This document shows, piece after piece, positions 2,886 through 48,323 of a stretch of 55,356 nucleotides of DNA. How positions within the stretch are numbered: the stretch's first letter is position 1; each line of letters opens with the position of its first letter. The notes beneath the pieces are model-generated. The model worked only from the letters and a program-made list of their open reading frames with translations, was not told the DNA's origin and did not search any database. This DNA is from an uncultured Gammaproteobacteria bacterium (lineage in GTDB: Bacteria > Patescibacteriota > Microgenomatia > Levybacterales > UBA12049), in NCBI GenBank assembly GCA_964637955.1, contig CAZWXQ010000007.1, positions 1-55,356 of the forward strand. Direction: 5' to 3'. The translations under genes were made by a program, and so were the position numbers.

Positions 2886-2963
2886 AATGTTAGCTTAGAT
2901 AAAATATCTAAACCAGTCAATAGGGCTTACCTTGAAGGCTTACCTTTTCCAGGACCCTGCTTA

Positions 2964-3557
2964 CTAGTTACTAGTAGAATTGGAGATTGTAATATAGGCA
3001 GGAGAAGTTGTAGATAGGACGTTTTCGCCACTGAGATCATTTGAAGCTACTGAATATACAGAATTACCACTTCCAAAAGAAACTAGAGTTTGCTTTGAAG
3101 TGGTATTAGCTATGAAGTTAACTGTTGCAGCTTTGCTTTGTGTGGAAATTGCCTTAGAAAGATCAGCTCCTACTGAAAGAACAACTTGAACTCTGCCATA
3201 TGAATACACAGGACCTTCTATTATCTGAGGAAATACCGCTTCATTTATGACTAAAGGATTTGATGGGGAAATTGAAATTAAGGTCGGGTCATATTGAATA
3301 TCAAGTTTTATTAATGATACAAGATTTTTACCTGGATTTAACATAACATCAAGAGAAAAAGTTTCTCCTACTGCTTTTTGCATGGGAGAGTTTGGAGCGG
3401 ATACTGGAATAAAAGATAGAGTAGTAGATTTTTCTGCTCGACTTCTCGTATCTCTTTGTTGGTTATTGATTACTAGAAATAGAGGCAACATTATTATCAT
3501 AACTACCGCAGAGAAAGCGAAATATTTATGCTTAATTATATTTATAAAACCTCTCAT
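2964..3557 (-). CDS. membrane-anchored cohesin-like domain protein (anchoring-scaffoldin-like, no dockerin)
   Basis: 197 aa. TM helix, then FSLDVMLNPGKNLVSLIKLDIQYDPTLISI...AATVNFIANTT, alignable by eye with the cohesin-like part of the 436-aa neighbour. Confidence 0.5.
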   Translation of the reverse strand: MRGFINIIKHKYFAFSAVVMIIMLPLFLVINNQQRDTRSRAEKSTTLSFIPVSAPNSPMQKAVGETFSLDVMLNPGKNLVSLIKLDIQYDPTLISISPSNPLVINEAVFPQIIEGPVYSYGRVQVVLSVGADLSKAISTQSKAATVNFIANTTSKQTLVSFGSGNSVYSVASNDLSGENVLSTTSPAYITISNSTSN

Positions 3558-3606
3558 ATCATAACAATATGTAATTTAGCCTTAAGTGTCAAGTAACTAT
3601 GGGCAA

Positions 3607-6600
3607 TTAGTCTCCTGATTTTATTGATAACTCTCTTAAGTAAAGATTATAGTCATCTTGATCAACTTTTCCATCATCCGAAATATCAGCGGCATTTTTT
3701 TTATTTTGATCCGAGCAGTTTTTGGCAGGCAAAAAATCTGAATAACAGTCAGATATTAGCTTAAAGTCTAAAATAGATAAAATATTATCATTATTTACAT
3801 CACCTGAAACTAGGATTATTGCTGGCAAGTTAGTAATAGATCCCTTAGTTACGTTAATTATTCCATTATATTGTTTTTTTAGAAATTGTGGTGACTTGAT
3901 TTTGATTAAGTAATTGCCAGTATCAATTGAGGAAGGTAGGGTGATAATGCCAGAAAAATCTCCGGTGTTAGGTGAGTAATTAATATTTCCCTGAGCTGTC
4001 ATGATTAGGGATCCGGAGCTGTTGTTTAATTCAAGTGTCACGCTTCTCGAGATTCTTGCGGGGTTTAAATTACCCCCAGATTTATTATTGGTCGCATCTC
4101 CACCAGAGCCAATTCCGTGAAGTTTTACTGAATTTAATTTTAGTTTAGTAGTGTTTGGAATTGGACTCGGCGTTTGAGTATTTGTGGGTGTTTTAGTGGG
4201 GTTTGGTGAAGGAGTAGGGGTTTTGGTTGGAGTTAAAGTGTATATGGGTGTAGTTGTATTGTTTTTAGAAAAAGATATTTTAAAGCTATTTCCAAGAGAA
4301 TTTTTCATATTAACAGAAAATTTAATAGGTGAAGTTGAGGTAACATTAATTTGAGGGTCTTTTGAGATTACGTCAGTCGCGTTTTTATTGATTGTAATAT
4401 TTACAGAATCATTTTCTTGCGTAGGATCAGCAATAGAAATATTAATAGATTCAGGTTCTTCGTCGACTATTATTGAAGAATTGCCAGAAGAAGATATGTC
4501 TCCTGCATTTCCAGAGCCAAAGAAATTTGCTGCGGTTATATTCAATTTGTTTTCTTTAACAGCATGAGCAGCTGAATTTTGTGCGAGGATTGAAATGTCG
4601 GGTTTCTGTGCATAAGATGAGGTTGTAGACTGACTGCTATTTGGCAAAAATACATATGCATATTTTTCATTTGTAGGATTTACACCATGGTTTATTAAAA
4701 TTTGTGCATAATTTCTTATTGGAGTAGTTAGATCACTTGCAGTATTTTTAATTTGTTTCCAGTTCCCAGATCTTGATTGTTTTTGAGCTGATATATTGCC
4801 ACTAATTGGAAAATAATAGCCACCTGTGCCTTCTAGAAATGCCCACTTTGGATTTAAAATATTAGTAGGGGAGGAGATTGATTTGTTGTCAATCTGAAAT
4901 ATATTTGAATTATCATTTTTAATTTTCCTATTTTCTATGATAGTTTGTACATTTTGATTATTGGTTGCGCTAATATTTGAACCAAGTGCGACAAGCTCAT
5001 TGTCGAATATGAAATATGATTTTTTTGCAAAAACATTTAGCTTTGATTTAAAATTCATTCCAACTGCAACATATGTATTTAATGTTGAGCCTCCTGCGTA
5101 TAATTTTGGAGACATATAATTATTTAGTTTGGAGTCAAAATTTTCGCTTAAATATGTATTGCTTGCTGAAAGCTTGATGGTTTCATCAATTGTTGTTCCT
5201 GGGAGTTTAGTTTTATCAACTGTTGCCCAGAAGTAATCATTGTATTGGCCTGGGTCAGTTTTATTATAAAAATAAATCATACCGTCACTTGTATACCATC
5301 CTTTTTTATTATCGCCATTTATTGATTCATAATTACCAATTCTTCCAGAAGACATGCTTATTCCAAATGCGTAATCATTTTTTAAGCTTACAAGTTTGTC
5401 TATTCTTGGAAAAAGTTTGGTAATTTCATAATTGTTGACAGAGATTAGATTTGGATCTTTGATTAATTTATAAGTTTCGATTATTGTAAAAATACTATCT
5501 CTTATTATTTGTTTATTTGTTTTGTTTAAAATTTCAGAGCCTAAATCTTTATACTGATTACCAGATAGTGAGCTAATGAATCCAGCTAAGCTACTTATTA
5601 GAGGTAAATCTGAATTTGTGACTTCTGTTCTTGGATAGCTTATTAATCTCCCCATAACCATGTCCATGGGAGATTCATTAAACATAAATGGTTGAAAGCT
5701 ATCTTTGTAATATCTATAGAGTTTATCTGTATTTGCAGATGCAAGGTTAGATTGTGATAAAACACGTGAAATTTCAACTACGTTTCTAAAAAATATAGAA
5801 CCGTACCACATATTATACGGATGAATTTCATGCTGAATGAAAGACCCATCACTATAAATTCCATCACTGCTATTCGTATATTGCATGAGCTTTTGATTGT
5901 AGTTGTAAATTGCTTCATCTAGAGCTATGGGATCATTGCTAATTCCTGCTCTTAAAAGTAAAGGAACAGTTGTCATGGCTAGGTTGCCAGCTGTATCGTG
6001 TACGCCATTTCCTTTATAAAATTCATTGCTAGAATTACTTCTTGGATTAGGATAAAAGCGTTCCACAGCGTTCATATTTTTAGTTATAAATTCTGTAAAA
6101 TCAGGATCTTGAGAAAGCCTGTCATATATTAGGATAATATTTGTTGTTAATGATCTTGGAATTCCAACTTCGTAAATTAGATTAGTTGAGCATTGATTTT
6201 CGATTGATTTAGGAGAGTTAAAAACGTTTCCTTTACATGTTTCAGAGTTGTACCAGTTGTTGTTTAACCAAATTAGTGAATCTTTTATTGCGATATAAAA
6301 AGCCTCTTTTTCATTAGGGTCCGTAATTGCTCCTTTAGTGGAGTAGGCAAGTGCCATTTTTTCAATTCTTTCATAAGTATCTGCAACCCAGTCTCCTCCA
6401 TTTGGACCATTTTTGTCGCTAAATAAATATTTTCTATCGGAGGAAGTTATTAATTGAGATTTTATGCTTCTGCCATCGCTTGCAATTTTTGTCACTTTTG
6501 CAGCAATTAAGCCGTTTAATTCTGGGTTTGATGTGTCATAGTTTCCGCCTGTTTCGTAGTTAAACCATGATTCACGAATTTTTGCATAATCATTTCCGCT

Positions 6601-6732
6601 AAAGTCTGCTCTCGTATTAATTTGTTGTTTTTGCTGAGTAGAAAAAATTATAAATGGGAGTGTTATGAGTAGAATGATAAAGGAGACTAAAGCTATTTTT
6701 TTATATTTAGTATTATGCCACAGTTTCCTCAT
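3607..6732 (-). CDS. polysaccharide lyase family 8-like enzyme (hyaluronate/chondroitin/xanthan lyase type) with PT linker, Ig-like module and dockerin-like C-terminus
   Basis: 1041 aa. N-terminal anchor, a PL8-type core including the DGSFIQHEIHPYNMWYGSIF motif region, and beta-sandwich C-domains. This is followed by [17 protein letters not shown] and GDVNNDNILSILDFKLISDCY...[21 protein letters not shown]. Confidence 0.7.
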   Translation of the reverse strand: MRKLWHNTKYKKIALVSFIILLITLPFIIFSTQQKQQINTRADFSGNDYAKIRESWFNYETGGNYDTSNPELNGLIAAKVTKIASDGRSIKSQLITSSDRKYLFSDKNGPNGGDWVADTYERIEKMALAYSTKGAITDPNEKEAFYIAIKDSLIWLNNNWYNSETCKGNVFNSPKSIENQCSTNLIYEVGIPRSLTTNIILIYDRLSQDPDFTEFITKNMNAVERFYPNPRSNSSNEFYKGNGVHDTAGNLAMTTVPLLLRAGISNDPIALDEAIYNYNQKLMQYTNSSDGIYSDGSFIQHEIHPYNMWYGSIFFRNVVEISRVLSQSNLASANTDKLYRYYKDSFQPFMFNESPMDMVMGRLISYPRTEVTNSDLPLISSLAGFISSLSGNQYKDLGSEILNKTNKQIIRDSIFTIIETYKLIKDPNLISVNNYEITKLFPRIDKLVSLKNDYAFGISMSSGRIGNYESINGDNKKGWYTSDGMIYFYNKTDPGQYNDYFWATVDKTKLPGTTIDETIKLSASNTYLSENFDSKLNNYMSPKLYAGGSTLNTYVAVGMNFKSKLNVFAKKSYFIFDNELVALGSNISATNNQNVQTIIENRKIKNDNSNIFQIDNKSISSPTNILNPKWAFLEGTGGYYFPISGNISAQKQSRSGNWKQIKNTASDLTTPIRNYAQILINHGVNPTNEKYAYVFLPNSSQSTTSSYAQKPDISILAQNSAAHAVKENKLNITAANFFGSGNAGDISSSGNSSIIVDEEPESINISIADPTQENDSVNITINKNATDVISKDPQINVTSTSPIKFSVNMKNSLGNSFKISFSKNNTTTPIYTLTPTKTPTPSPNPTKTPTNTQTPSPIPNTTKLKLNSVKLHGIGSGGDATNNKSGGNLNPARISRSVTLELNNSSGSLIMTAQGNINYSPNTGDFSGIITLPSSIDTGNYLIKIKSPQFLKKQYNGIINVTKGSITNLPAIILVSGDVNNDNILSILDFKLISDCYSDFLPAKNCSDQNKKNAADISDDGKVDQDDYNLYLRELSIKSGD

Positions 6733-16774: not shown

Positions 16775-17356
16775 CTAGGGTGCCGGAGAGACTCCGACTC
16801 TGCTGGGCGGCAAGGTCGCCCGAGGGTTTTCGTCTTCCCCGAGAACGTGCTCGTCCGGCCAGAAGAGGCCGATGGGCACGAAGAGCACGCGGCTTCGGTT
16901 GTACGCGGTCTGCGCGTTGATCAGCTCACCCCTGGCATAGGTGATGCGGTTGACCGAGCCTGCGGTCTCATCGAAGAGTCCACGCTGGATCTCCGTGAGC
17001 CCGATGTTCGGGTAGTTCTCCACGAAGGAGCGGAGTGCGAAGAAGGCCTGCGCGGCGTTCTCCACGTTGCCAGGATCGGATGTGTCGCCTTGCGACGCTG
17101 TGTCGAAGGCACTTCGAGCGCTGGCGATCTCCTCGATGAGATCTCGCTGGAGATCGACGGTCACGTTGAACTGCTGCTCAAGCCTGGGCAGTAGTTCGCT
17201 TGCGCGTTCGATCTGGTTCCAGATCTCAGCGGTTTTGCCGCGGATAGTCTCTTGGCCACCAGCGAGGGATGCGTATCCCACGACCTGGTAGGCACCGAAG
17301 AGCCCCGCGATGACGAGTACGATGAGGGAGATCATCCCACATCCACGCATGATCAC
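16775..17356 (-). CDS. lemA: LemA-family protein
   Basis: 193 aa. N-terminal TM helix, then a helical region with ...VENYPNIGLTEIQRGLFDETAGSVNRITYARGELINAQTAYNRSRVLFVP..., resembling the LemA consensus. GTG start. Located upstream of the terminator and downstream of two TPM genes, the usual neighbourhood. Confidence 0.65.
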   Translation of the reverse strand: MIMRGCGMISLIVLVIAGLFGAYQVVGYASLAGGQETIRGKTAEIWNQIERASELLPRLEQQFNVTVDLQRDLIEEIASARSAFDTASQGDTSDPGNVENAAQAFFALRSFVENYPNIGLTEIQRGLFDETAGSVNRITYARGELINAQTAYNRSRVLFVPIGLFWPDEHVLGEDENPRATLPPSRVGVSPAP

Positions 17357-17376
17357 CTTGTGATCCCTTTCTGGCG

Positions 17377-18111
17377 TTAGCCGCCTGAACCGCCGCCGCC
17401 GGAGCTTCCTCCGCCGCCGAATGAACCACCACCCGAGCTCGAGCTAGATGAACTGCCCGAGTAGTAAGACCCCCCGTATCCAGTAGCGCCTCTTAGAGCA
17501 CCAGCTAGGACTACGAGGCCCAAGAAGATGAGTACCCATACCCACCATGGCCAGCCCGAGTCGGGAGATTTGAGGTCTCTGAACTCATCGGCTTCCGGTT
17601 GGGTGAGGAAGTCAGCGAACTTCGTAGCAAGTTGGACGAGTCCGTCTTGCCACTTTCCGTCCTTCCGTAGAGGGTTGAAGAAGTTCTCCCGAAAAAGGGT
17701 GAACTTTGAATCGGGAAGAAGTCCTTCCATGCCTTTGCCGGTAGCGACGAAGATGTAGGGCTTGGGGTCGTTCTTGGATCCCGGACGGTCGAGAAGTACC
17801 ATGATCGTGAGACCATTGTCCTTTTCGGCCGAGCCGATACCGTTCTCATTGGCGACTTTGGTCGCGAACTGAGCCGGATCTGAGTTGATGTCCTTGAAGA
17901 ACACGCCTGCGAGCTGGAAGCCCAGAGTGCCAATCCTATCGGACTGTGCCCTCAATGCCTCCAGGGTTTCGCCGGGAACAGTGCCTGTGGTATCCACCCA
18001 GCCTCGATCACTCTTCGTGATTTGAGGAATGGAGGGATCCGCGGACCCTGAGCAGCCAGCGAGCAGTAGGGTCAGGAAGATGATTACGCCGAAGAGATTC
18101 CGGAGCCTCAT
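17377..18111 (-). CDS. TPM-domain (YgcG-like) lipoprotein with TM helix and Gly/Ser-rich tail
   Basis: Lipobox LLLAGCSG. TPM-like core GIGSAEKDNGLTIMVLLDR...YIFVATGKGMEGLLPDS...FNPLRKDGKWQDGL. TM helix and a GGGSFGGGGSSGGGGSGG tail. Confidence 0.75.
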   Translation of the reverse strand: MRLRNLFGVIIFLTLLLAGCSGSADPSIPQITKSDRGWVDTTGTVPGETLEALRAQSDRIGTLGFQLAGVFFKDINSDPAQFATKVANENGIGSAEKDNGLTIMVLLDRPGSKNDPKPYIFVATGKGMEGLLPDSKFTLFRENFFNPLRKDGKWQDGLVQLATKFADFLTQPEADEFRDLKSPDSGWPWWVWVLIFLGLVVLAGALRGATGYGGSYYSGSSSSSSSGGGSFGGGGSSGGGGSGG

Positions 18112-18119
18112 CTTACTGG

Positions 18120-19154
18120 TTATCCACCCGAGCCTGAGCCGCCGAAGTCTCCACCTCCGCCGAAGGATTCTCCTCCGCCGATGTTGAAGCCTCCAGAGCT
18201 GCCGCTGTCGAATCCTGAGCCGCCGAAGCTGCTCCCGAAAGAATTGCCGCTGTCATCGTCATGATGATGCGAGCTTCTGTGCGGTGGGTCGTCGTCACGG
18301 TCTTCTGGCTCGTCTCTGCGAGTCGAGTGCCCGGCTGAAGCCAGAGTCGCTGCCGTTCCCAGATATGTGAGACCATGGGAAGGGTACGGATCTGGCTGGG
18401 GCGTGTACGACGTTCGCGTGGACGAACTGCTGATTGGGTAGGACACGGGGTCGAAGTAGGGATCCTGCTTCTGGGACTTCCTTGCAAGGACGACCAAGAA
18501 GATCACGACTGCCGCTACGATCGCCCCGAAGATGAGGATCACCCACATGAGGGCGTTCCCATCATTGGTGCTTTGGGTCGGTTGGGGGTTGGGGCTCTGG
18601 GATTCTGGGTTGGACAAGTCCACCATGAAGTTTGCCAGTTCCCTGGAAAGGCTTATGAGGCCTTCTTCCCACCGTCCCTGGGCGCGAAGGGGGTTGAAGT
18701 ACTTCTCCCGGAAGCGGGTCACCGCTGAGTCAGGGAGGTCTCCTTCGAGTCCTCGGCCTGGCGCCACAAAGATGTACGGCTTGTTGCCGTCCGAGCCTTT
18801 GCGGTCCAGGAGGACCAGGATCATGAGACCGTTGTCCTTTTCGGCCGAGCCGATCCCGTTCACGTTACCTACGTCTGAGGTGAACTGGCTGGGGTCGGAT
18901 TCGATGTCCGAAAAGAACACGCCGGCCAATTGATAGCCGCCCGCATGAACCCTGTCGGATTCCTTGCGAAGAGCTTCCATGGTTGCGGCGGGAACTGTTT
19001 CCGTCGTATCCACCCATCCGCGGTCACTGACCGTGATGTGGGGGATGGCGGGGTCTGCTGCTTGTGCGGTGATTCCGACAAGCGACAGCAGGATCACTGC
19101 CACGAAGGGCAAGATCCTTACGAGCCGTGTGGTCACGATGTCCTTTCTGTGCAC
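18120..19154 (-). CDS. TPM-domain (YgcG-like) protein, paralog of the preceding gene, longer Pro/Ser/Gly-rich tail
   Basis: GIGSAEKDNGLMILVLLDR...YIFVAPGRGLEGDLPDS...FNPLRAQGRWEEGL aligns with the neighbour over ~150 aa. Signal peptide and a TM helix. GTG start. Confidence 0.75.
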   Translation of the reverse strand: MHRKDIVTTRLVRILPFVAVILLSLVGITAQAADPAIPHITVSDRGWVDTTETVPAATMEALRKESDRVHAGGYQLAGVFFSDIESDPSQFTSDVGNVNGIGSAEKDNGLMILVLLDRKGSDGNKPYIFVAPGRGLEGDLPDSAVTRFREKYFNPLRAQGRWEEGLISLSRELANFMVDLSNPESQSPNPQPTQSTNDGNALMWVILIFGAIVAAVVIFLVVLARKSQKQDPYFDPVSYPISSSSTRTSYTPQPDPYPSHGLTYLGTAATLASAGHSTRRDEPEDRDDDPPHRSSHHHDDDSGNSFGSSFGGSGFDSGSSGGFNIGGGESFGGGGDFGGSGSGG

Positions 19155-20541: not shown

Positions 20542-21540
20542 ATGGAAAGAAGAGGACCATCATTACTCGAGAGCATGCCCCAAAGACCTTCGTATGAGAT
20601 TGTTGCGGGAACTTCAAATCCCGAACTCGCTAAAAGTATAGGTGAAATACTTCATAGAACAGTTGATGGGTCAGCAGGAGAGTTCCTAAATCATGAGACT
20701 AAAGTTCAAATTACCCCAAATCTTCGAAAAAGAGATGTATTTGTAATCAATTCCATGCAGGATCCTGCCAATAATTATTTTATGGAGCTATTGACTATGG
20801 TTCAGGCTGCGAAGCTGGCATCTGCTGCAGAAGTCACAGCTGTTATTCCTTATTATGGATATGGAAGACAGGATAAAAAAGACGCACCGCACGTTCCTAT
20901 TACTGCAGATTTAGTGGCTAAAGCTCTTGTAAATGCAGGAGCAGACAGAATCTTCACTCTTGATATACATGCAGAGCAAACGATGGGCTCCATAGCACCT
21001 AGACCCTGGGATAATCTCTATGGCAGTCGAGTTTTACTTCCTGCCGTTAGCGCATTAGGGCTCGATAATCCAGTTGTGGCTTCAGCTGATGCCGGGGGGG
21101 TAAAAAAAGCTGAAAAATTTTCACTCTTGCTTGATGGATCCGGCGAAGTAGTTATGGTACATAAAAGAAGAAGCGGGGCAGATGTAAAAGCTAAAGCTGT
21201 TGTAGGAGATGTGGAAGGCAGGGATGTAATAATGGTTGATGATATGATAGATACGGCAGGAACTCTTAGAGAGGCGTCCCAACTCATAAAAGCACATGGG
21301 GCAAATAGAATTATTGCTTTAGCAACACATGGTCAGTTCACTGGTCCGGCTCTTGATAGAATTTCAGATTCACCAATCGATAGAGTTCTTGTAACGGACA
21401 CTATTCGCCAATCAGATGAGGTTAGAAATAATCCTAAAATTCAGATTGTAACTGTAGCTGCGCTCATAGCAGAGGCAATTAAAAGAATTCACAGAGGTGG
21501 ATCATTAAGTGCGTTAATTCCAATGCCTCCAAAGAGTTAG
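20542..21540 (+). CDS. prs: ribose-phosphate pyrophosphokinase
   Basis: YYGYGRQDKK, DIHAEQ and VDDMIDTAGT motifs. The true start may be ATG 20575. TTGACA-N17-TATATT lies upstream at ~20494-20522. Confidence 0.9.
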   Translation: MERRGPSLLESMPQRPSYEIVAGTSNPELAKSIGEILHRTVDGSAGEFLNHETKVQITPNLRKRDVFVINSMQDPANNYFMELLTMVQAAKLASAAEVTAVIPYYGYGRQDKKDAPHVPITADLVAKALVNAGADRIFTLDIHAEQTMGSIAPRPWDNLYGSRVLLPAVSALGLDNPVVASADAGGVKKAEKFSLLLDGSGEVVMVHKRRSGADVKAKAVVGDVEGRDVIMVDDMIDTAGTLREASQLIKAHGANRIIALATHGQFTGPALDRISDSPIDRVLVTDTIRQSDEVRNNPKIQIVTVAALIAEAIKRIHRGGSLSALIPMPPKS

Positions 21541-23830: not shown

Positions 23831-24562
23831 TTATGGCTTTAATTGTTTAGGTTCATCCCACCATGTATTCGAACTTCTTTGAGATGAACCTCTAACTTCT
23901 TGAATTAGTAATCCTCCTTTTGCTCTGTCTATTAGTCTCATAGTCTCGCTTGTATCTCCAGCAAACGATAGACCTGATTTTAGAAAACTTTTTGGATCCT
24001 GTGTGTTGCTGGTTATAAAAAGTCTTCCGCCTTTGTTATGCATTAAGGTAATAGCTTTTCGTACGAAAGCTGATCCACTACCATACTCTGAATTCCAATC
24101 GTCAATAATCAGCACGTCAAATTCTTGCCTCAGAATTTCATTGCCAAGTCCTTTAAGTTCAGCGAGATTTATATACATCGATTTTTTACCTTCTGCTATA
24201 GCTTTCTTTGCAAAAGCAACACTTAGATGAGTTTTTCCAACTCCTGGATCTCCATGAACAAACATTCCTGCCAGTTTTCCATCAGCTGTCTGTAAAAGTC
24301 TTTCCATCATTCTCGTAAGGTCTGTCTGAGATTGATTTTGTGGAGAATAATTATCCCATCGTGAAGAAGCATTTTCCAAAGGTAAATCAGGATGAAGTTG
24401 GGAGAATGTTATATCAACTCGCATTTTACTTAATTGATCTGCTGAAAATTTTCCATCCGGTCCTTTTTCGTAGGAATTAATTATGGAATCAAACTTAACC
24501 TCAGGAAGTCCAGTTGTTGCTGGAGTATATTCAAATACTGAAATTGGTGCCCCTTCATTCAT
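23831..24562 (-). CDS. DnaC/IstB-like P-loop ATPase (array gene 1)
   Basis: Walker A HGDPGVGKTHL and Walker B VLIIDDW. There is no adjacent transposase or helicase. Confidence 0.55.
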   Translation of the reverse strand: MNEGAPISVFEYTPATTGLPEVKFDSIINSYEKGPDGKFSADQLSKMRVDITFSQLHPDLPLENASSRWDNYSPQNQSQTDLTRMMERLLQTADGKLAGMFVHGDPGVGKTHLSVAFAKKAIAEGKKSMYINLAELKGLGNEILRQEFDVLIIDDWNSEYGSGSAFVRKAITLMHNKGGRLFITSNTQDPKSFLKSGLSFAGDTSETMRLIDRAKGGLLIQEVRGSSQRSSNTWWDEPKQLKP

Positions 24563-24570
24563 AGTGGGAA

Positions 24571-24599
24571 ATTATATCAAAAAGGGGAGAGTATATCAA
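24571..24599 (-). promoter_or_regulatory. promoter TTGATA-N17-TATAAT, 8 nt before ATG 24562
   Basis: Minus strand reads TTGATATACTCTCCCCTTTTTGATATAATTTCCCACTATG. Confidence 0.55.
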
Positions 24600-24604
24600 A
24601 ATGT

Positions 24605-24638
24605 ATCAGCAGGTCTAAAGTAACTACTCTGTTAGGAA
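24605..24638 (-). repeat. conserved intergenic box, copy A (divergent)
   Basis: Plus strand ATCAGCAGGTCTAAAGTAACTACTCTGTTAGGAA. It overlaps the stop codon of the 121-aa gene. Confidence 0.6.
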
Positions 24639-24997
24639 TTATTATCAGTACTAGATGCAAATTCTAGTTGCTCAGTTGAGTCAAACCATCTTACTACTGT
24701 TCTAACTGTTGCTTCGTGATCAATTAGACCTCTAACTAAGTTTTCCAATTCTAGATCTAATTCTTCTCGCTCAGCAAAGCTTACACCAATTGAATCTTCA
24801 GACACATATGGTTCATAATCAGAATAGTTTCCATTTCTCTCTACAACGACTGCACCAACTCTTCCAATAGCAGGTCCAATAAGTGCTTTAACTAAATCAC
24901 CTCGTTGAAAAATAGTAGGCGTAGGTGTTTCTACTCTTCTTATAGGAGTGGGATAAAAACTATCTGCTGACACAAATCTCAGAACTTCTTCATTCAT
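24632..24997 (-). CDS. hypothetical protein (121 aa, array gene 2)
   Basis: ORF track. Begins MNEEV. It has its own promoter. Confidence 0.5.
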   Translation of the reverse strand: MNEEVLRFVSADSFYPTPIRRVETPTPTIFQRGDLVKALIGPAIGRVGAVVVERNGNYSDYEPYVSEDSIGVSFAEREELDLELENLVRGLIDHEATVRTVVRWFDSTEQLEFASSTDNNS

Positions 24998-25004
24998 GAC
25001 GGAG

Positions 25005-25033
25005 AGTATAGCAGACTAGTCACTATATCACAA
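25005..25033 (-). promoter_or_regulatory. promoter TTGTGA-N17-TATACT, 7 nt before ATG 24997
   Basis: Minus strand reads TTGTGATATAGTGACTAGTCTGCTATACTCTCCGTCATG. Confidence 0.45.
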
Positions 25034-25036
25034 TAT

Positions 25037-25067
25037 ATCAGCAGGTCTAAGGCGACCATACTAGAAA
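25037..25067 (-). repeat. conserved intergenic box, copy B (divergent)
   Basis: Plus strand ATCAGCAGGTCTAAGGCGACCATACTAGAAA. Confidence 0.55.
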
Positions 25068-25098
25068 TTATTTTTATTATCTTTGATATACTCATTTC

Positions 25099-25710
25099 GT
25101 GATAAAAGCAATAATTTTTGATATAGGAGGAGTAATTGTTTCTCCAGAAGTTGAAAAAATTACTCAGCGAGTTTCTGTATACGCTGGAGTAGATTTCGAA
25201 TCTTTTAATAAGTATTATGAACAATATAAATCAGATCTTACAAAAGGAAAGATTTCTCTAATTGATGTATATTCTGAAATAGTTAATCATTTCAAGTTAA
25301 CTAGTCTAACAGGTCAAAATCTTGTAGATGAACACCTTAGGCTTTTCAGGGAAGTTATAGAAAATTTGGATGAAGAAGTTATAGCTTTAGTTGAAAATCT
25401 AAAACAGAAATATGAAGTTTTTTGTTTGGTAAATGCTGAAAAAGATGTTGTGCCTTTGGTAAGGAAAAGGGGAATTTATTCTCATTTTCAAAAAGCATAT
25501 ATTTCTACGGAAATGGGTATGGAAAAGCCAGATCTAGAAATATATGAAGCTGTTCTAAAAGATATAAATTTCGTTCCTGAAGAAACATTATTTATTGATG
25601 ATAAGAAGCCAAATGTTGATGCGGCAGACAAGCTTGGTATTCATACAATTTTATATAAAAACTACAAAGACTTAAAAGAAGAATTAGTTAATCTGAAAGT
25701 GGATTTTTAA
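25099..25710 (+). CDS. HAD-superfamily hydrolase
   Basis: IIFDIGGVIV (motif I variant) and FIDDKKPNVDAA (motif IV). GTG start 6 nt after TATACT (25087-25092). Confidence 0.75.
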   Translation: MIKAIIFDIGGVIVSPEVEKITQRVSVYAGVDFESFNKYYEQYKSDLTKGKISLIDVYSEIVNHFKLTSLTGQNLVDEHLRLFREVIENLDEEVIALVENLKQKYEVFCLVNAEKDVVPLVRKRGIYSHFQKAYISTEMGMEKPDLEIYEAVLKDINFVPEETLFIDDKKPNVDAADKLGIHTILYKNYKDLKEELVNLKVDF

Positions 25711-25713
25711 TCT

Positions 25714-25744
25714 ATCAGCAGGCCTTAAGTGACTATGTTGGAAG
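25714..25744 (-). repeat. conserved intergenic box, copy C
   Basis: The 33 nt TCTATCAGCAGGCCTTAAGTGACTATGTTGGAA (25711-25743) are identical to the equivalent stretch at copy D (26613-26645). It lies directly after the stop of the 274-aa gene. No promoter half is present because the HAD gene converges here. Confidence 0.7.
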
Positions 25745-25747
25745 CTA

Positions 25748-26572
25748 TTATCTCTTTGCTCTTCTTAATGCTGATTCAAGTTTATCTTTTAATAATTCCA
25801 TAACTTTTTCTCTAGTCAGTCTAATATAGCTTCCATCTTTTTCAGAGACATAGAAACCCATTTTATAAATTTCAGCAAGATTTATCGAATCAATAAAGCT
25901 TGAATAATATGCCTCAAAATCTCCATCAGGAAATTCAAGCTGAGCTATTTCGAAGAGTCTTCTAAAATCTGAAGATCTGTCCTTGGGAATTAATGCTCCA
26001 GTATCTGTGCCGAATCGTATGAAATTTCTTCTAGTGGATTGTGGGTTAGCGTTCCACGCATTCTTATATACTTCGTGACGATCTTCTTGCGAAGTTTCAT
26101 TACTTTTTAGCATTAAATAATTATGTTCTGGCGTTGAAACTAACATTCCTGTGGGAAGAACTAGTCCTCTACTATCTGACCATCCGGAAAGTAAAGCTGT
26201 TAAATCAGCATAAGCTCCTGAAAAGCTAATGTCATATGGATGAGAGTGAGTATTGATGCTTATTTTAGATCCTGGTTCGTCATAAATTGCCCAATCACAT
26301 TCAGCATCATCACCAATCTCAGGATTTTCGGGAAACAATAACTGCCCATCAGTGCTAATGCTTATAAGAGATCCTCGTTCGCGTCCATCAGTGTCATTTT
26401 GAGTTAATTCCGATAACCAGTTTGCATAAGTTTCAATAGTAGTTGAAGTTAGTTGCTGTGGTAAATCCGAATAAGCTGGATAAATACCAGATACACTGTC
26501 AACGACATATCTTTCTAAAAGATAATTATTTCCAATCAGCTCTGAATGTTTGAGAGTTAAACCTTCTGTCAT
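25748..26572 (-). CDS. hypothetical protein with JAB/MPN-like HSHP motif (array gene 3)
   Basis: 274 aa. NTHSHPYDISFSGAYAD resembles the JAMM HxH...S..D signature, with an upstream Glu (GRERGS). The spacing is not exact. Confidence 0.5.
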   Translation of the reverse strand: MTEGLTLKHSELIGNNYLLERYVVDSVSGIYPAYSDLPQQLTSTTIETYANWLSELTQNDTDGRERGSLISISTDGQLLFPENPEIGDDAECDWAIYDEPGSKISINTHSHPYDISFSGAYADLTALLSGWSDSRGLVLPTGMLVSTPEHNYLMLKSNETSQEDRHEVYKNAWNANPQSTRRNFIRFGTDTGALIPKDRSSDFRRLFEIAQLEFPDGDFEAYYSSFIDSINLAEIYKMGFYVSEKDGSYIRLTREKVMELLKDKLESALRRAKR

Positions 26573-26580
26573 CGGAGGGA

Positions 26581-26610
26581 ATTATATCAAGAAAGAGGAG
26601 AGTATATCAA
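26581..26610 (-). promoter_or_regulatory. promoter TTGATA-N18-TATAAT, 8 nt before ATG 26572
   Basis: Minus strand reads TTGATATACTCTCCTCTTTCTTGATATAATTCCCTCCGATG, nearly identical to the promoter at 24571-24599. Confidence 0.55.
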
Positions 26611-26615
26611 AATCT

Positions 26616-26645
26616 ATCAGCAGGCCTTAAGTGACTATGTTGGAA
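26616..26645 (-). repeat. conserved intergenic box, copy D
   Basis: Plus strand ATCAGCAGGCCTTAAGTGACTATGTTGGAA. Confidence 0.7.
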
Positions 26646-26659
26646 ATTATTTTATTATT

Positions 26660-27499
26660 CTAACTTCCAAATAGTCTACGGAAGCGGCTCGGAGGTTGAA
26701 TTGGGCCATGTGTAGCAGCTTCTGCTAATGAATCGTTTATTCTAGTAATGACTTTCCACGCATCAGACTCGGTGAAATCTAGAAGTGTTGCGACACGTGA
26801 ATAAACTTGGCTAACAGCTTCGGTAAATTCTCCGTCAGCTGTAAGTTCTGCAAGCTGTTTTAGTCTCAGTTCTTCGATTTCTCGACTATGGTTAATATTA
26901 ATCATTCCTTTAGGGGCAGAGATTTTTGCTTTTCTCGCAAGCCTAGCTCGAGCTGCTTCTACTTCTTCTTGAGTCCAAAGTTTAGGAGTGAATGTTTCGG
27001 TAGTAATCATGGCTCCTGAGTGAGGATAGTGGCTGTATTTAAATCCATACATTCCATGTTTGTATTCCTGAACATTATTGGCCAAAGTAGATTTTCCACG
27101 TGACACAGATAATTCCACAGGATCCATGTTGCCTGAAGGATTTCCAGGTCTGAGCTCTACGTGAGTACTTAAATCTTCATCTTCCCATCCAAGTAATATT
27201 CCTCTGCCACCTTGTGCCCAGAGTCCTGCATCTGGTTGATTCAAAGGCCAGGGTAATTTAGCAGGATCTAATTTAGAATCGTAACTAATTTCCCATAGTG
27301 AACTTTTTGCAGGTTTCCTGGTTACTTTTGGAGAAATCTGGAAACCAACTTCATTAGGATGTTGCTGGATTATTCCTAAATTAGACAGTGATCCAGTTAA
27401 AGAAGTATGAGCAGTTTGCACCCATTTATCTAATTTTTCAGCTGTTAAATCTTCTGGAGTCAGTACTTCGCGACCGTCAGTTTGTTCAGTCATAAACAA
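26660..27499 (-). CDS. hypothetical protein (array gene 4); likely start ATG at 27493
   Basis: The track start is TTG. ATG two codons later gives MTEQTDG, 6 nt after TGcTATAAT (the -10 TATAAT hexamer at 27500-27505). Confidence 0.5.
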   Translation of the reverse strand: MFMTEQTDGREVLTPEDLTAEKLDKWVQTAHTSLTGSLSNLGIIQQHPNEVGFQISPKVTRKPAKSSLWEISYDSKLDPAKLPWPLNQPDAGLWAQGGRGILLGWEDEDLSTHVELRPGNPSGNMDPVELSVSRGKSTLANNVQEYKHGMYGFKYSHYPHSGAMITTETFTPKLWTQEEVEAARARLARKAKISAPKGMININHSREIEELRLKQLAELTADGEFTEAVSQVYSRVATLLDFTESDAWKVITRINDSLAEAATHGPIQPPSRFRRLFGS

Positions 27500-27526
27500 A
27501 TTATAGCAAATGAGGTTTGATTCTGT

Positions 27527-27556
27527 TATGCAGGCCCTGAGTGACTATGTTGGAAG
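27527..27556 (-). repeat. conserved intergenic box, copy E
   Basis: Plus strand TATGCAGGCCCTGAGTGACTATGTTGGAAG. Confidence 0.6.
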
Positions 27557-27581
27557 TTTTTATTTAAATTCGTGATGGGAG

Positions 27582-28460
27582 TTATTTGCATTCTGTTTTT
27601 GAGCCATTTCCATCCTCAGTTCCAGAAGTATTACAAGTTTCTATTCTCGATACTGCTTCGGTAACTAATGATAATTTATATATTGAAGCCGAGGATCCTG
27701 GGCCATCACCACCGCCGCAAGTAAAATAGAAAATGTTGTTTTTCGTAAGTTGTAGAGGTTGTCTGCAGCCAAAATAAGCCATGCCTTGATCTTCGAGTTT
27801 TGAAATATTTGCAATTTCTTTTATTTCTTCGCCGTTGACAATTCCTACATACGGTACGCCTGAGCACCCGCCTCCACAAGGTCCAAGGCTGTATAAAATA
27901 ATTATTTTATCTTCTTTTGGGGCGCAAGTGGATATTTCCATAACAGATCTATCCTCAGATTTATATTTTTCTTCTAGAGTCTTAATGTAATTTAGAGTTT
28001 CAAGATCATCCAATGTAATAGTTTTATTAGTTTCATCACTTGAAGTATATTTATCGCCATACTTAGTATAGTTAGGCGTGCAATAAATAGGAGTCAGTGA
28101 ATCATCTGAGGCTTGTGTTATTTCAGTTGGATATTTTTCATTTTCAGGTGCAAAATCTTCTGTAATATCAAAATGACGTATTTTATATTCTTTAGGTAGA
28201 CTTGAGGAGAAAGTTGAGACTTGAGTAGGTATAGGAGTTGCTGTTGATTCTATATATTTTGCTTTATCAAGAGTCATGGATTTTTTTTGATGAGAGCTAA
28301 AATAAAATGCTCCAAATCCAATTAAGATCAGAAGCAAGATTATGCCACCGATAATAAGTCCCACATTTTTCTTTGAGCTCTTTTTTTCATGAATTGGGGC
28401 GGGAATGGGGCTTGTTGGAAGCGGTTGATTTTCCATGATTGAGGTATTATTTTCTTCCAT
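27582..28460 (-). CDS. membrane-anchored Cys-rich extracytoplasmic protein, hypothetical (array gene 5)
   Basis: 292 aa. TM helix VGLIIGGIILLLILIGFGAFYF. CGGGCSG and CGGGDGPGSS motifs. Confidence 0.5.
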   Translation of the reverse strand: MEENNTSIMENQPLPTSPIPAPIHEKKSSKKNVGLIIGGIILLLILIGFGAFYFSSHQKKSMTLDKAKYIESTATPIPTQVSTFSSSLPKEYKIRHFDITEDFAPENEKYPTEITQASDDSLTPIYCTPNYTKYGDKYTSSDETNKTITLDDLETLNYIKTLEEKYKSEDRSVMEISTCAPKEDKIIILYSLGPCGGGCSGVPYVGIVNGEEIKEIANISKLEDQGMAYFGCRQPLQLTKNNIFYFTCGGGDGPGSSASIYKLSLVTEAVSRIETCNTSGTEDGNGSKTECK

Positions 28461-28466
28461 GAATCA

Positions 28467-28495
28467 AGTATTCCAGCAAGGGTTTTAAATGTCAA
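28467..28495 (-). promoter_or_regulatory. promoter TTGACA-N17-AATACT, 6 nt before ATG 28460
   Basis: Minus strand reads TTGACATTTAAAACCCTTGCTGGAATACTTGATTCATG. Confidence 0.5.
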
Positions 28496-28604
28496 TGAAG
28501 GAGATTTAAACAAGGATGGAGATTTTCTTACATCTTGATTATTCGATATTGTGCGCCAAAACATTGATTAAAAACTACTTTAAAAGTATAATTGTTTTTA
28601 CTCT

Positions 28605-28676
28605 AGGGGTGTGGTGAAATGGCTATCACAGCAGTCTCCAAAACTGCTTTTCACAGTTCGAGTCTGTGCGCCCCTG
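28605..28676 (+). tRNA. tRNA-Trp (anticodon CCA)
   Basis: Hand-folded cloverleaf: acceptor AGGGGTG/CGCCCCT, D arm GTGA/TCAC, anticodon arm GCAGT-CTCCAAA-ACTGC, T arm CACAG-TTCGAGT-CTGTG. 72 nt. CCA is not encoded. Confidence 0.85.
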
Positions 28677-28681
28677 CAAGC

Positions 28682-31785: not shown

Positions 31786-31962
31786 TTACTTTAGCTTATC
31801 AATTTCTTTGTGTTCTGTAACTTTTCTGCAAACTTTGCAGTACTTTTTAAGTAAAAGTTTTGCTTCTGTGTTTATTTTATTTCTTTCCGTGATGTAATTT
31901 ACGTGTTTGCAAACGCTACATTTTAGTCCGAAATTTTGTCTGTGTTCACCTTTTTTTGCCAT
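31786..31962 (-). CDS. rpmG: 50S ribosomal protein L33 (zinc-ribbon form)
   Basis: Below the ORF-track length cut-off. Hand translation gives MAKKGEHRQNFGLKCSVCKHVNYITERNKINTEAKLLLKKYCKVCRKVTEHKEIDKLK, with CxxC...CxxC. Confidence 0.85.
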   Translation of the reverse strand: MAKKGEHRQNFGLKCSVCKHVNYITERNKINTEAKLLLKKYCKVCRKVTEHKEIDKLK

Positions 31963-46719: not shown

Positions 46720-48261
46720 ATGCCCGAACCACAATTGGATGCAAGTTTTATTAGACCAGATAAAGCAATTGCAACTCCTTCTACTCCAGAGTATAAAAAT
46801 ACGGCAGAAATGAATCCTTCAGATTACAAGCTTCAGTGTGAAGAGCTCATAAAAGTAAATAATACTCTGTCTATTCCAAACCCAGAATTTGTTAACACGT
46901 TAAAGGGCTGGAGTCCACGTGTTGAGGAAGGTTATTTGGGTTCAACGCTTAATGTTATTAAAAATATTAATTCAAATAGGTTCGATGTAAGCGAAAAAGA
47001 TCAAAATTCTCAAACAGCTTATGATTCTAAAAATAAGTTAAGTCGTTTTAAGATAGATTTTGTTAACTCAAATTCTCCACTACTCAGACAAGTTTATTCT
47101 GCTACTCAAGATGAAGCGCTCAGAAAAGAGATTGTTGCCGTATTTGAAGGTCAACTTCTCGGTGCAAATGGTCTTGAAGTTAAATCTGCCTTAGAGTTTT
47201 TTATAGATACATATGAAGAAATTGGTTATTCTATGTGGCCAGTTTTGAGAAAATATTTTTTTCGAAAAGGATTAAGTTGGGATCAATTTAGAAAAGAATA
47301 TAATGAAGGTCGGGATGAAACAATAGGAGATTCAGTTTTTAAGTTAGCAAAAAAAACCTTGCAGAATTCAAAAGATTTTGCAGAAATAAATGCAACTATT
47401 GCTGGCGTAGTAGGATCTACTTATCCACTTGATATAGAAAAAGAAATTGATGAAATACTTACTCAGCAAGTGAGTCAATTTGGGATTGATGGGTATGAGA
47501 CTGTTAGAGCATGGAAGGAAAATCAAACAGGAGATAACCGTATGGAATTATTCGGTGAGTTTGTTGCTAATAGTCTTAATAGTATGAGAATAATTGAGAC
47601 TGAAAGGCCGGGGATTTGCAACGTGCTTTTTACTGAGTATGGAATTAGAAACTTCGGTAGATATCCTGCAGTTTCATTAATTGCTCAATATGATAACCGC
47701 GATCAACAGATTCCTTACGGAGTTTTAATTTATCCAGAAAGTGATTACAATGGAGCTTTTTCAGAACACGAAATAGCAATAGAAGGACTTTTTAGAGACC
47801 TTTCAGCAATGAATCATGGATTAAGAATTTATGAGAGTGGAAGTAGGCAAGAAGTAGTTCGAGCACTTATTTCAGCAGACAAGAGGTACGGCAAACAAAA
47901 TAAAATTTCATTTGCAGTTTTGGGAGGACACGGGGAACCAGATTCAATAGCTATGGGAGGAAGAAGATCAAATGGGGATCTGGAAATTTCTCAAAAAGAT
48001 TTAGAAAATCCCCGAACTAAAAAAATTAAGGACCTTTTCATAGAAGACCCGACGCTTATTTTAATTTCATGCAGTACCGGGGTTGAGGCAGGGATAGGTG
48101 AGGATATGTCTAGTTTAGGTGTAAATGTTATTGCGCCAGATAGTAGTACAAATTTAGATCAAATTAGAGCTTTTAGGCAAAGAAATGGAAGTCTGAAGTT
48201 TGATGTTGTTTTTGAGGGTAAAGCTAATGCTGCGCATTTTCCAAAAGAATCAAAAAACTAA
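46720..48261 (+). CDS. hypothetical protein, paralog A: helical N-domain + C-domain with caspase-like His/Cys dyad
   Basis: 513 aa. Strand-HG (FAVLGGHG, His404, codon 47929-31) and strand-C (LILISCSTG, Cys451, codon 48070-72), 47 residues apart. Confidence 0.6.
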   Translation: MPEPQLDASFIRPDKAIATPSTPEYKNTAEMNPSDYKLQCEELIKVNNTLSIPNPEFVNTLKGWSPRVEEGYLGSTLNVIKNINSNRFDVSEKDQNSQTAYDSKNKLSRFKIDFVNSNSPLLRQVYSATQDEALRKEIVAVFEGQLLGANGLEVKSALEFFIDTYEEIGYSMWPVLRKYFFRKGLSWDQFRKEYNEGRDETIGDSVFKLAKKTLQNSKDFAEINATIAGVVGSTYPLDIEKEIDEILTQQVSQFGIDGYETVRAWKENQTGDNRMELFGEFVANSLNSMRIIETERPGICNVLFTEYGIRNFGRYPAVSLIAQYDNRDQQIPYGVLIYPESDYNGAFSEHEIAIEGLFRDLSAMNHGLRIYESGSRQEVVRALISADKRYGKQNKISFAVLGGHGEPDSIAMGGRRSNGDLEISQKDLENPRTKKIKDLFIEDPTLILISCSTGVEAGIGEDMSSLGVNVIAPDSSTNLDQIRAFRQRNGSLKFDVVFEGKANAAHFPKESKN

Positions 48262-48273
48262 TTTATTAGACCT

Positions 48274-48306
48274 GAAATTTTGACAGAATGGTTTAGTGAA
48301 AAATAA
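48274..48306 (+). repeat. intergenic copy of the mrdA 3' end (GAAATTTTGACAGAATGGTTTAGTGAAAAATAA)
   Basis: 31/33 identical to 46678-46710. Followed by TATAAT (48312-17) 6 nt before ATG 48324. Confidence 0.8.
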
Positions 48307-48323
48307 TAAACTATAATTGAACT

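Follow-up and report, generated by a model that had tools for sequence, protein, structure and literature searches.

Elements known as CIMEs (cis-mobilizable elements) in Streptococcus thermophilus are kilobase-scale remnants of known integrative and conjugative elements (ICEs) with identifiable parents, and they accrete at ICE att sites. The vsp/vlp loci of Mycoplasma consist of paralogous lipoprotein genes that switch by phase variation. The Patescibacteria, or Candidate Phyla Radiation (CPR), have tiny genomes in which few classical mobile elements are thought to be present, and their acquisition of accessory genes is poorly understood. Here, a 55,356-bp chromosomal contig (CAZWXQ010000007.1; about 35% G+C), referred to as the window, was analyzed for an array of five minus-strand genes that abuts a tRNA-Trp(CCA) gene and holds five direct copies of a ~35-nucleotide (nt) repeat, referred to as the box. 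On balance, with confidence a little above even, the region is taken to be the portion nearest tRNA-Trp of a cassette array that is specific to its lineage within Candidatus Levybacteria and that recombined at a core common to the box and the tRNA end.

The array resembles the CIMEs, which are integrase-less modules lying in tandem at one site between att-like direct repeats with a recombinase presumably acting in trans, but no parent element is known for it. As in the vsp/vlp loci, neighboring genes have highly similar promoters and 5′ regions; however, the array genes are not related to one another, and what is conserved follows the 3′ end of the upstream gene. Like integron arrays, the array is composed of tandem unrelated single genes, including toxin-antitoxin-like ones and occasional reversed cassettes, with a recombination-site-like, cassette-ending repeat at or over the stop codon, and its content varies among relatives while the anchor stays fixed. 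In contrast to integrons, there is no adjacent intI-type tyrosine recombinase, the ~35-nt repeat forms neither an imperfect palindrome nor a hairpin of the attC type, a leaderless promoter (a −35/−10 pair 6 to 8 nt from the ATG) is present in every unit in place of expression from Pc, and the anchor is a tRNA 3′ end, not attI. In the islands of Prochlorococcus built by tycheposons, partial tRNAs mark past integrations, and most of the material has no integrase of its own (10.1101/2020.12.28.424599). The arrays described here share with those islands variable DNA right 3′ of one particular tRNA gene that is full length, streamlined genomes, much integrase-less material, a small replication-type gene (here that of a DnaC-like ATPase), and, on L169 and L167, partial tRNA repeats. 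They differ in that their units are single genes of 0.4 to 1.2 kb as opposed to multi-kb elements and in that the box has a consensus of its own sharing ~5 to 6 nt with the tRNA, as opposed to a ~40-nt tRNA copy; moreover, no tyrosine or serine recombinase was seen, and the window has no partial tRNA repeat. Since the searches for intI, an attC hairpin, and promoter-less cassettes were negative and no integrase was found, the array was placed in neither of these two families.

The TopA protein encoded in the window shares 72 to 77% identity with TopA proteins of Candidatus Levybacteria/Levyibacteriota metagenome-assembled genomes (MAGs), which indicates that the host is a Levybacteria-group member of the Patescibacteria. 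Housekeeping genes in the window include nusG, rplK, rplA, mreB, mreC, a penicillin-binding protein gene, topA, def, fmt, and dprA. The Logan assemblies of SRR14271336 and SRR14271332 carry the identical arrangement. A preliminary description, made from the sequence alone, had listed five minus-strand open reading frames (ORFs), a HAD gene on the plus strand, an acyltransferase gene, and the tRNA-Trp(CCA) gene, all of which are present; the five ORFs encode 243, 121, 274, 277/279, and 292 amino acids (aa). The features of the region, read along the array strand, are as follows.

31786..31962 (−), rpmG (ribosomal protein L33), conserved flank; 71% identity to positions 2645-2827 of the related contig L170
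28682..31666 (−), alpha-2-macroglobulin (A2M)-like gene, 994 aa, convergent with tRNA-Trp and ending 4 nt from the tRNA 3′ end
28605..28677 (+), tRNA-Trp(CCA), 3′ end ...CGCCCCTGC (ARAGORN, Rfam)
28564-28592, own promoter of tRNA-Trp (promoter scan)
27582..28460 (−), gene of a 292-aa membrane-anchored protein, first array gene; no box 5′ of the gene; leaderless promoter TTGACA-17-AATACT
27526..27563 (−), box W1, ~20 nt past the stop codon of the 292-aa gene; nhmmer score 35.5
26660..27493 (−), gene of a 277-aa protein; ATG at 27493 (TTG at 27499 in the ORF lister)
26615..26653 (−), box W2, the same as W3 across at least 29 nt; nhmmer score 42.2
26573..26614 (−), leaderless promoter half: −35 TTGATA, 18-nt spacer, TG-extended −10 TATAAT, 8 nt to the ATG
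25748..26572 (−), gene of a 274-aa JAB/MPN-like putative metallopeptidase
25713..25751 (−), box W3, right after the 274-aa stop and abutting the convergent HAD 3′ end; nhmmer score 40.8
25099..25710 (+), HAD-family hydrolase gene, reverse-oriented, with W3 and W4 as direct repeats on either side
25035..25074 (−), box W4, a further diverged copy (68% identity to W3); nhmmer score 31.8
24632..24997 (−), gene of a 121-aa protein
24604..24645 (−), box W5, overlapping the 121-aa stop codon, with a 3-nt insertion; nhmmer score 28.8
24563..24603 (−), promoter of the ATPase gene, leaderless, TTGATA-17-TATAAT
23831..24562 (−), gene of a 243-aa DnaC/IstB-like AAA+ ATPase, last array gene

In gene orientation, the box reads TTCCAACATAGTCACTTAAGGCCTGC (also written ...AATAATTTCCAACATAGTCACTTAAGGCCTGC), and the ~35-nt consensus is TAATAATTTCYAACATAGTCRCTTARSGCCYGC. 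The five copies form a direct-repeat family confined to 4 kb, with none in the remaining 51 kb. A 29-mer of the box allowing up to 3 mismatches had 2 matches in the window against 0.00 expected, and a 19-nt degenerate pattern had 4 against 0.02, which bears out the conserved box of the preliminary description. That account placed a box before four genes, and a fifth copy was found: W3 precedes no gene, no promoter or gene follows it on its own strand, and its similarity to W2 ends 2 nt short of the HAD stop codon (25708-25710). W4 is preceded by the divergent start of the HAD gene and not by a same-strand gene. The upstream regions 24563-24638 and 26573-26645, described as near-identical, share 82% identity (63 of 77 columns), so the term was too strong. 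The start codons of the four box-preceded genes (27493, 26572, 24997, and 24562; gaps of 921, 1,575, and 435 nt) share one frame, which is probably a coincidence (chance about 1 in 27).

Each array gene has a sigma70-like −35/−10 pair ending 6 to 8 nt before its ATG, as had been noted; however, this arrangement is not special to the array, since 18 of the 44 window genes have a TAnnnT hexamer ending exactly 6 nt 5′ of the start codon (about 1.4 expected from base composition by our own estimate). Shine-Dalgarno-like motifs precede just 2 of the 44 genes. Together, these counts indicate that mRNAs are mostly leaderless in the host genome. The similar N-termini of the array proteins, also pointed out earlier, reflect a shared module that runs into the first codons, but they are weak evidence because M-x-E starts occur in about 10 of the 44 window genes (counted by reading).

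Further box copies were sought with a variant-spanning pattern and an nhmmer profile built from the copies. Arrays of boxes with gene-sized spacing were found on the following low-GC Patescibacteria contigs.

L163/L164 (JGI Ga0502760): three copies detected, plus two degenerate copies seen by eye
L165: two copies
L167: three copies
L169 (Patescibacteria MAG DASZRC01): two copies
L170 (Levybacteria MAG CAZUZF01, from which TopA locus L004 also comes): three copies
L172 (GCA_964525395.1): one strong and two weak copies

The comparison is carried by about seven independent contigs, most of them short. No box was found in 458 kb of TopA loci, mostly from Patescibacteria, or in viral contigs searched with two patterns. 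A metagenome scan with the box pattern yielded two true contigs and one chance match, and an early pattern that was too window-specific had a chance match in Rheinheimera as its sole result. The genes lying between boxes are varied. On L170, a pair consists of a PIN-domain gene and an upstream partner, and the second member of another pair matches the CopG antitoxin, both with Pfam scores under the curated cut-off. The other inter-box genes encode an M23 peptidase, an MpaB-like oxygenase, a DUF6883/DUF4926 pair, an Asp/Glu racemase, a SWEET-like protein (weak match), and many orphans. The W2 module, covering 84 nt from box start to ATG, shares 79% identity with the box-1 module of L170, although the genes that follow are unrelated and L170 comes from a different genome (its NusG has 84% amino acid identity to that of the window). 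The two best window modules are likewise 79% identical over the same 84 nt.

A different intergenic repeat was observed on contig L184 (810-860 and 1690-1735), where it follows two toxin-antitoxin-like pairs (DUF433/DUF5615 and RHH/ParE) beside a JAB-family gene. This repeat, GCGGTTCGATA(G/A)AAA(A/-)TGACTTAGG(C/G)TCAC, contains a T-loop-like GGTTCGA and a GTGAC...GTCAC hairpin, and its stretch AGTGACTTAGGG is similar to AGTCACTTAAGG of the box. Judging by this similarity, it may represent a related junction family.

The arrays are linked to tRNA genes. ARAGORN predictions place a same-strand tRNA-Trp(CCA) gene directly 5′ of the first array gene on L165, L169, and L170 and a tRNA-Asp gene directly 5′ of the array on L163. 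The window array also abuts tRNA-Trp, as the preliminary description stated, but the tRNA gene and its promoter lie inverted relative to the array. Thus, the window, L165, L169, L170, and L163 each carry an island next to a full-length tRNA gene. The last letters are CCCTGC in each of the four tRNA-Trp genes and C(C/T)TGC in the boxes of the Trp-linked arrays. On L163, they are CCCGC in the boxes and CCCCGC in the tRNA-Asp gene. On L169, the ~115 nt past the tRNA 3′ end are near-identical to the ~115 nt past box 1, beginning right after CCTGCA, and the left-hand sequences (tRNA and box) are unrelated. Partial tRNA-Trp 3′ fragments occur on the array strand within the arrays of L169 (two, each 18/18) and L167 (one, 23/24). 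At its end, the ~115-nt spacer of L169 repeats 18 nt of the tRNA-Trp 3′ end exactly, and this copy is joined at CCCTGC to TGATATAGTTTGATATATTCTTC...TTGATATAAT, and the promoter TGATATAGTTTGATATATTCTTC nearly matches post-box promoters of L170 (TGATATATTTTGATATATTCTTC) and the window (TGATAGATTTTGATATACTCTCC). Because the same right-hand sequence follows each of them, the tRNA end, the tRNA fragment, and the box are seen as interchangeable left partners with a breakpoint at CCTGC. The spacer itself looks like a minimal "empty" unit between att-like copies. This repeated spacer (L169 1440-1577 and 700-837) also contains a canonical intrinsic terminator (GTCAGACGAATGTCTGA followed by T6).

These junctions bear on an alternative in which functional intergenic modules, consisting of a regulatory or terminator box and a promoter, spread by duplication and were exchanged by RecA, for example after natural transformation, with no dedicated recombinase. 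We regard this as unlikely. It would account for the lack of a recombinase near any array, it accords with the DprA protein encoded in the window, and the modules, 60 to 82% identical over about 80 nt with at least 29 identical nt shared by W2 and W3, would offer homology for such exchange. However, it does not explain the precise placement of arrays at the 3′ ends of tRNA genes on five contigs, the agreement of the box core with the tRNA end and its co-variation between the Trp and Asp arrays, or how true partial tRNA 3′ fragments came to be joined at CCCTGC to the same promoter.

Comparison of the related loci reveals that whole box-delimited genes differ among relatives, the outcome of a check of gene content and order that the preliminary description had proposed. 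L170 is syntenic with the window in rpmG (71% identity), nusG (84%), rplK, rplA, an NTP-transferase gene, and a PAP2 gene. Its order is rpmG, tRNA-Trp, M23 peptidase gene, box, gene of a 241-aa orphan, box, a pair encoding a 93-aa protein and the PIN-domain protein, and box, versus rpmG, the A2M-like gene, inverted tRNA-Trp, the 292-aa gene, box, and onward in the window. The position of the rpmG/tRNA-Trp locus is therefore kept, and its content is wholly different. A similar pattern is found at tRNA-Asp, which lies ~30 nt upstream of PolX-LemA-M48 on L178/L179 and is separated from these genes on L163 by a ~4.9-kb box array. On L172, two extra box-bounded genes, one of them reversed, intervene between the homologues of the 292-aa gene and the 277-aa gene. 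From its sequence, W1 looks as if L172 box 1 had contributed its left part and L172 box 3 its right flank. This difference could also be a deletion between direct repeats, as exchange by RecA would produce. A reverse gene between direct box copies is present both in the window (HAD) and on L172. By eye, L163 shows this arrangement as well: a box-like copy that the profile missed lies before the ATPase homologue and after a divergent gene. The DnaC-like ATPase gene occurs in both a Trp-linked array (window) and an Asp-linked one (L163), and a relative (40%) of the 375-aa L163 protein is encoded in the L167 array.

The position of the box was examined relative to gene ends and gene starts. In 17 of 21 copies on seven contigs, the box start has the end of a same-strand ORF (78 codons or longer) between −20 and +12 nt from it, and the AT-rich left end of the box (TAATAAT) often provides the stop codon. 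Copies at convergent junctions are mostly well kept (nhmmer scores of 40.8 for W3, 38.2 for L165, and 36.9 for L163-C, with one L172 copy at 7.4), and those at divergent junctions tend to decay (31.8 for W4, 5.0 for L172, and L163-D undetected by the profile). The placement of stop codons and the conservation by junction type indicate that the box tracks the upstream gene. Hence, the "portable 5′ module" of the preliminary description needs rewording: the box and promoter do form a junction module, but the box goes with the 3′ end of the preceding gene, and the promoter type is genome-wide. The box and leaderless promoter are better seen as one ~80-nt junction module.

The same placement would be expected if the box marked the 3′ end of the upstream gene, whether as a factor-dependent terminator or as an element for RNA processing or stability. 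The box and the upstream gene always share a strand, most convergent junctions retain the box, and it is degraded where an upstream gene is lacking. Nevertheless, this explanation is judged very improbable, as there is no conserved hairpin or U-tract, the box is missing from the other ~40 window genes, and the link to tRNA genes is unexplained. When ten copies with flanks were folded, no common fold emerged; the z-scores were near zero in eight (−0.7 to +1.1), and the single strong fold (W2) is a pairing with the end of the 277-aa gene that is absent in other copies. No Rfam match was found for the box even at E values up to 5. On L169, the box is not a terminator, because a canonical hairpin and T-run come after it there. 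A reading of the box as an RNA element was rejected on the blank Rfam search and the inconsistent folds.

An operator or activator site, at which a lineage-specific transcription factor would co-regulate accessory genes, had been among the readings put forward earlier. Such a role agrees with the fixed orientation of the box, with its strong conservation across genomes without RNA structure, and with the distance of 70 to 88 nt between the box start and the ATG, just 5′ of the −35 element, in 11 of the 14 copies that have a following gene. Against it, the next start lies 116 to 191 nt from the box in the remaining copies, and W3, L163 4329-4366, and L165 2441-2405 are well conserved without a downstream promoter. 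Furthermore, no linked regulator gene was identified, the genes are functionally unrelated and differ between genomes, and the tRNA adjacency, common core, and partial tRNA fragments are not accounted for. We therefore consider an operator improbable.

Other types of repeat were rejected as candidates. No palindrome or inverted-repeat family matched the box by repeat search and folding, and a dispersed repeat of the repetitive extragenic palindrome (REP) or miniature inverted-repeat transposable element (MITE) type was set aside on this ground and because all five copies lie within 4 of 55 kb. By eye, attC- or dif-like dyad symmetry was rejected (TTCYAAC is only loosely like the integron inverse core site and has no partner arm), as were the initiation of mutagenic homology (IMH) site of a diversity-generating retroelement (DGR; no variable/template repeat and no reverse transcriptase), a DNA uptake sequence (the box is not scattered over the window), and Tn7/IS21 transposon ends (no transposase and wrong spacing).

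Returning to the cassette array, its unit would be one gene or a small operon, at times reversed. Units would be separated by the ~80-nt junction module, in which the box lies at or over the preceding stop codon and is followed by a post-CCTGC sigma70-type promoter that would start the leaderless mRNA of the next gene. They would be gained, lost, and shuffled through recombination at the CCTGC core common to the box and the 3′ end of the anchoring tRNA, with the tRNA end acting as attB/attI and the box plus promoter forming the joined att site of a cassette. The favored agent would be a site-specific recombinase encoded elsewhere, with RecA-dependent exchange between repeated modules as the fallback. 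We infer the site specificity of the recombination, the enzyme involved, and the lack of an extra regulatory role for the box. A cassette array built by recombination at the box and the remains of an element that had integrated at the tRNA had been offered as separate readings; the comparative evidence supports a combination of the two. A further proposal is put forward tentatively and with considerable doubt: Levybacteria-group genomes may possess an integron-like gene capture system that uses a tRNA (Trp, sometimes Asp) 3′ end as the insertion site and a ~35-nt non-palindromic site plus leaderless promoter, so that each captured gene would arrive self-expressed, with a trans-acting recombinase that would be encoded at another genomic site or by a helper element.

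Several observations weigh against the cassette array. No Phage_integrase or other recombinase was detected with Pfam in the scanned window ORFs of at least 110 aa, and none was found among the called genes of L163, L172, and the other related loci. Under simple tandem integration, a box would be predicted after the last gene, and none follows the last gene of either the window array or the L163 array. The tRNA-Trp gene of the window is inverted relative to the array. No tRNA-Trp fragment was found in the window array, where nothing longer than 11 nt matches; the idea that such a 3′-end repeat marks an island boundary in the window, a check proposed in the preliminary description, was accordingly rejected. 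The nhmmer box profile does not match tRNAs, and the similarity between box and tRNA-Trp beyond CCTGC is not significant. The similarity of the promoter halves may partly be a clade-wide promoter consensus, and CCCATAGTTACTTGACA is found upstream of the non-array gene 2964-3557. The constant box-ATG spacing also fits a promoter-associated protein-binding site. Finally, support comes from only about seven contigs, most of which are short.

The five array proteins are regarded as unrelated cargo and not as one functional system. No sign of a single system was seen: only the order 292-aa to 277-aa is conserved, in part, on L172, and only the ATPase recurs on L163. The preliminary description had called the genes orphans, which does not hold for four of them. 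The 243-aa protein has the Walker A motif GDPGVGKTH and the Walker B motif LIIDDW, both seen in the sequence, in an IstB/DnaC-type core, as expected of a DnaC/IstB-type AAA+ ATPase. It matches Pfam IstB_IS21 with 31.7 bits (cut-off, 24.1) over 36 residues only and PHROG 50 (DnaC-like helicase loader) at 3.7e-16 over residues 65-172. No IstA or TnsB partner was found for it, and its one homologue (67% identity) lies within the tRNA-Asp-headed array of L163.

For the 274-aa protein, a word-indexed search found the protein itself alone, and an exhaustive phmmer search revealed a family (P0006-P0084 plus the window protein; 264 to 349 aa) that comprises about 80 clusters when grouped at 50% identity and is without a Pfam model of its own. 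E65, H109, H111, S118, and D123 are each conserved in 90% or more of the 65 aligned members, if not invariant, and the motif spacing HxH-x6-S-x4-D departs from the canonical JAMM pattern. The family profile matched AMSH-like and AfJAMM proteins in PDB weakly (E values of 0.07 to 0.5), and Prok-JAB was matched by 5 of the 65 members. The AlphaFold2 model has a mean predicted local distance difference test (pLDDT) score of 93.5, and its best Foldseek match in PDB, a weak one, is Cap3, the JAB protein of the cyclic oligonucleotide-based antiphage signaling system (CBASS), with an E value of 0.24 and template modeling (TM) scores of 0.26/0.44. The weak but consistent indications from sequence and model suggest that the protein is a divergent JAB/MPN-like (JAMM-type) putative metallopeptidase. 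Two tandem paralogues of this family are found on L181, and more distant JAB-family genes lie next to box-like sequences (L176 and L177) or just 3′ of tRNA-Thr (L178-L180).

The 277-aa protein was not assigned a function; its 70% homologue on L172 (P0005) is preceded by a degenerate box and by a homologous promoter. The 292-aa protein, Cys/Gly-rich with an N-terminal membrane anchor, has a 29% relative on L172 and no match in Pfam, PADLOC, or PHROG. The 121-aa protein has no relatives in the libraries searched, which included these three. The reverse-oriented HAD protein matches Pfam Hydrolase (3.3e-14) and HAD_2 (6.8e-12). No PHROG structural match and no meaningful PADLOC match were obtained among the window proteins, in line with the earlier statement that no integrase, phage structural gene, or recognized defence gene is present. 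A prophage or defence island was rejected on these blanks and on the absence of the ATPase, as well as the box, from viral contigs.

The A2M-like protein next to the tRNA gene aligns with the Pfam A2M domain just over model positions 1-50 of 92, at its C-terminus, and no thioester or receptor-binding domain follows the match; the gene may be truncated. That the gene belongs to the array is our inference only, and it may be a reverse-oriented cassette that was followed by an inversion. A related-locus search with this protein found nothing, and it thus provided no synteny.

Other parts of the window were also noted. A ~2.4-kb segment with a G+C content of 58 to 59% (16775-19154), within the ~35% G+C genome, codes for LemA and for a pair of TPM-domain paralogues (50% mutual identity). 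The segment is not a chimera, since it is also present in the independent Logan contig L173, and it appears to have been acquired recently from a high-GC donor. The phosphoribosyl pyrophosphate (PRPP) synthetase encoded at 20542-21540 has its best GTDB-representative relatives, at no more than 46% identity, all outside the Patescibacteria (Christensenellaceae, Alteromonadales, Desulfovibrio, and Melainabacteria); it may have been acquired, or the peptide patterns may have failed to pick up copies in Levybacteria, and this search likewise provided no synteny. At 46720-50078, a tandem pair of paralogues (513 and 584 aa; 34% identity) has no Pfam match. A ~185-aa C-terminal domain is common to the proteins of 453-1574 and 1575-2885 and a PL8 polysaccharide lyase (3607-6732), and the N-terminal region of a cohesin-domain protein (2964-3557) is shared with that of 1575-2885, which suggests that the proteins within 453-6732 form a cell-surface module.

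Most members of the JAB/MPN-like family lie on contigs of 1 to 5 kb, many of them on contigs of 1 to 4 kb. Because repeated modules break short-read assemblies, the box can flag variable regions that are under-assembled, and it provides a sequence handle for locating such islands, and the recombinase, in complete genomes. If the cassette array is real, cassette-capture architectures would extend beyond integrons to systems with no hairpin site and no linked integrase, and tRNA-anchored, self-expressed single-gene cassettes would be a compact route of gene gain and loss in CPR episymbionts.

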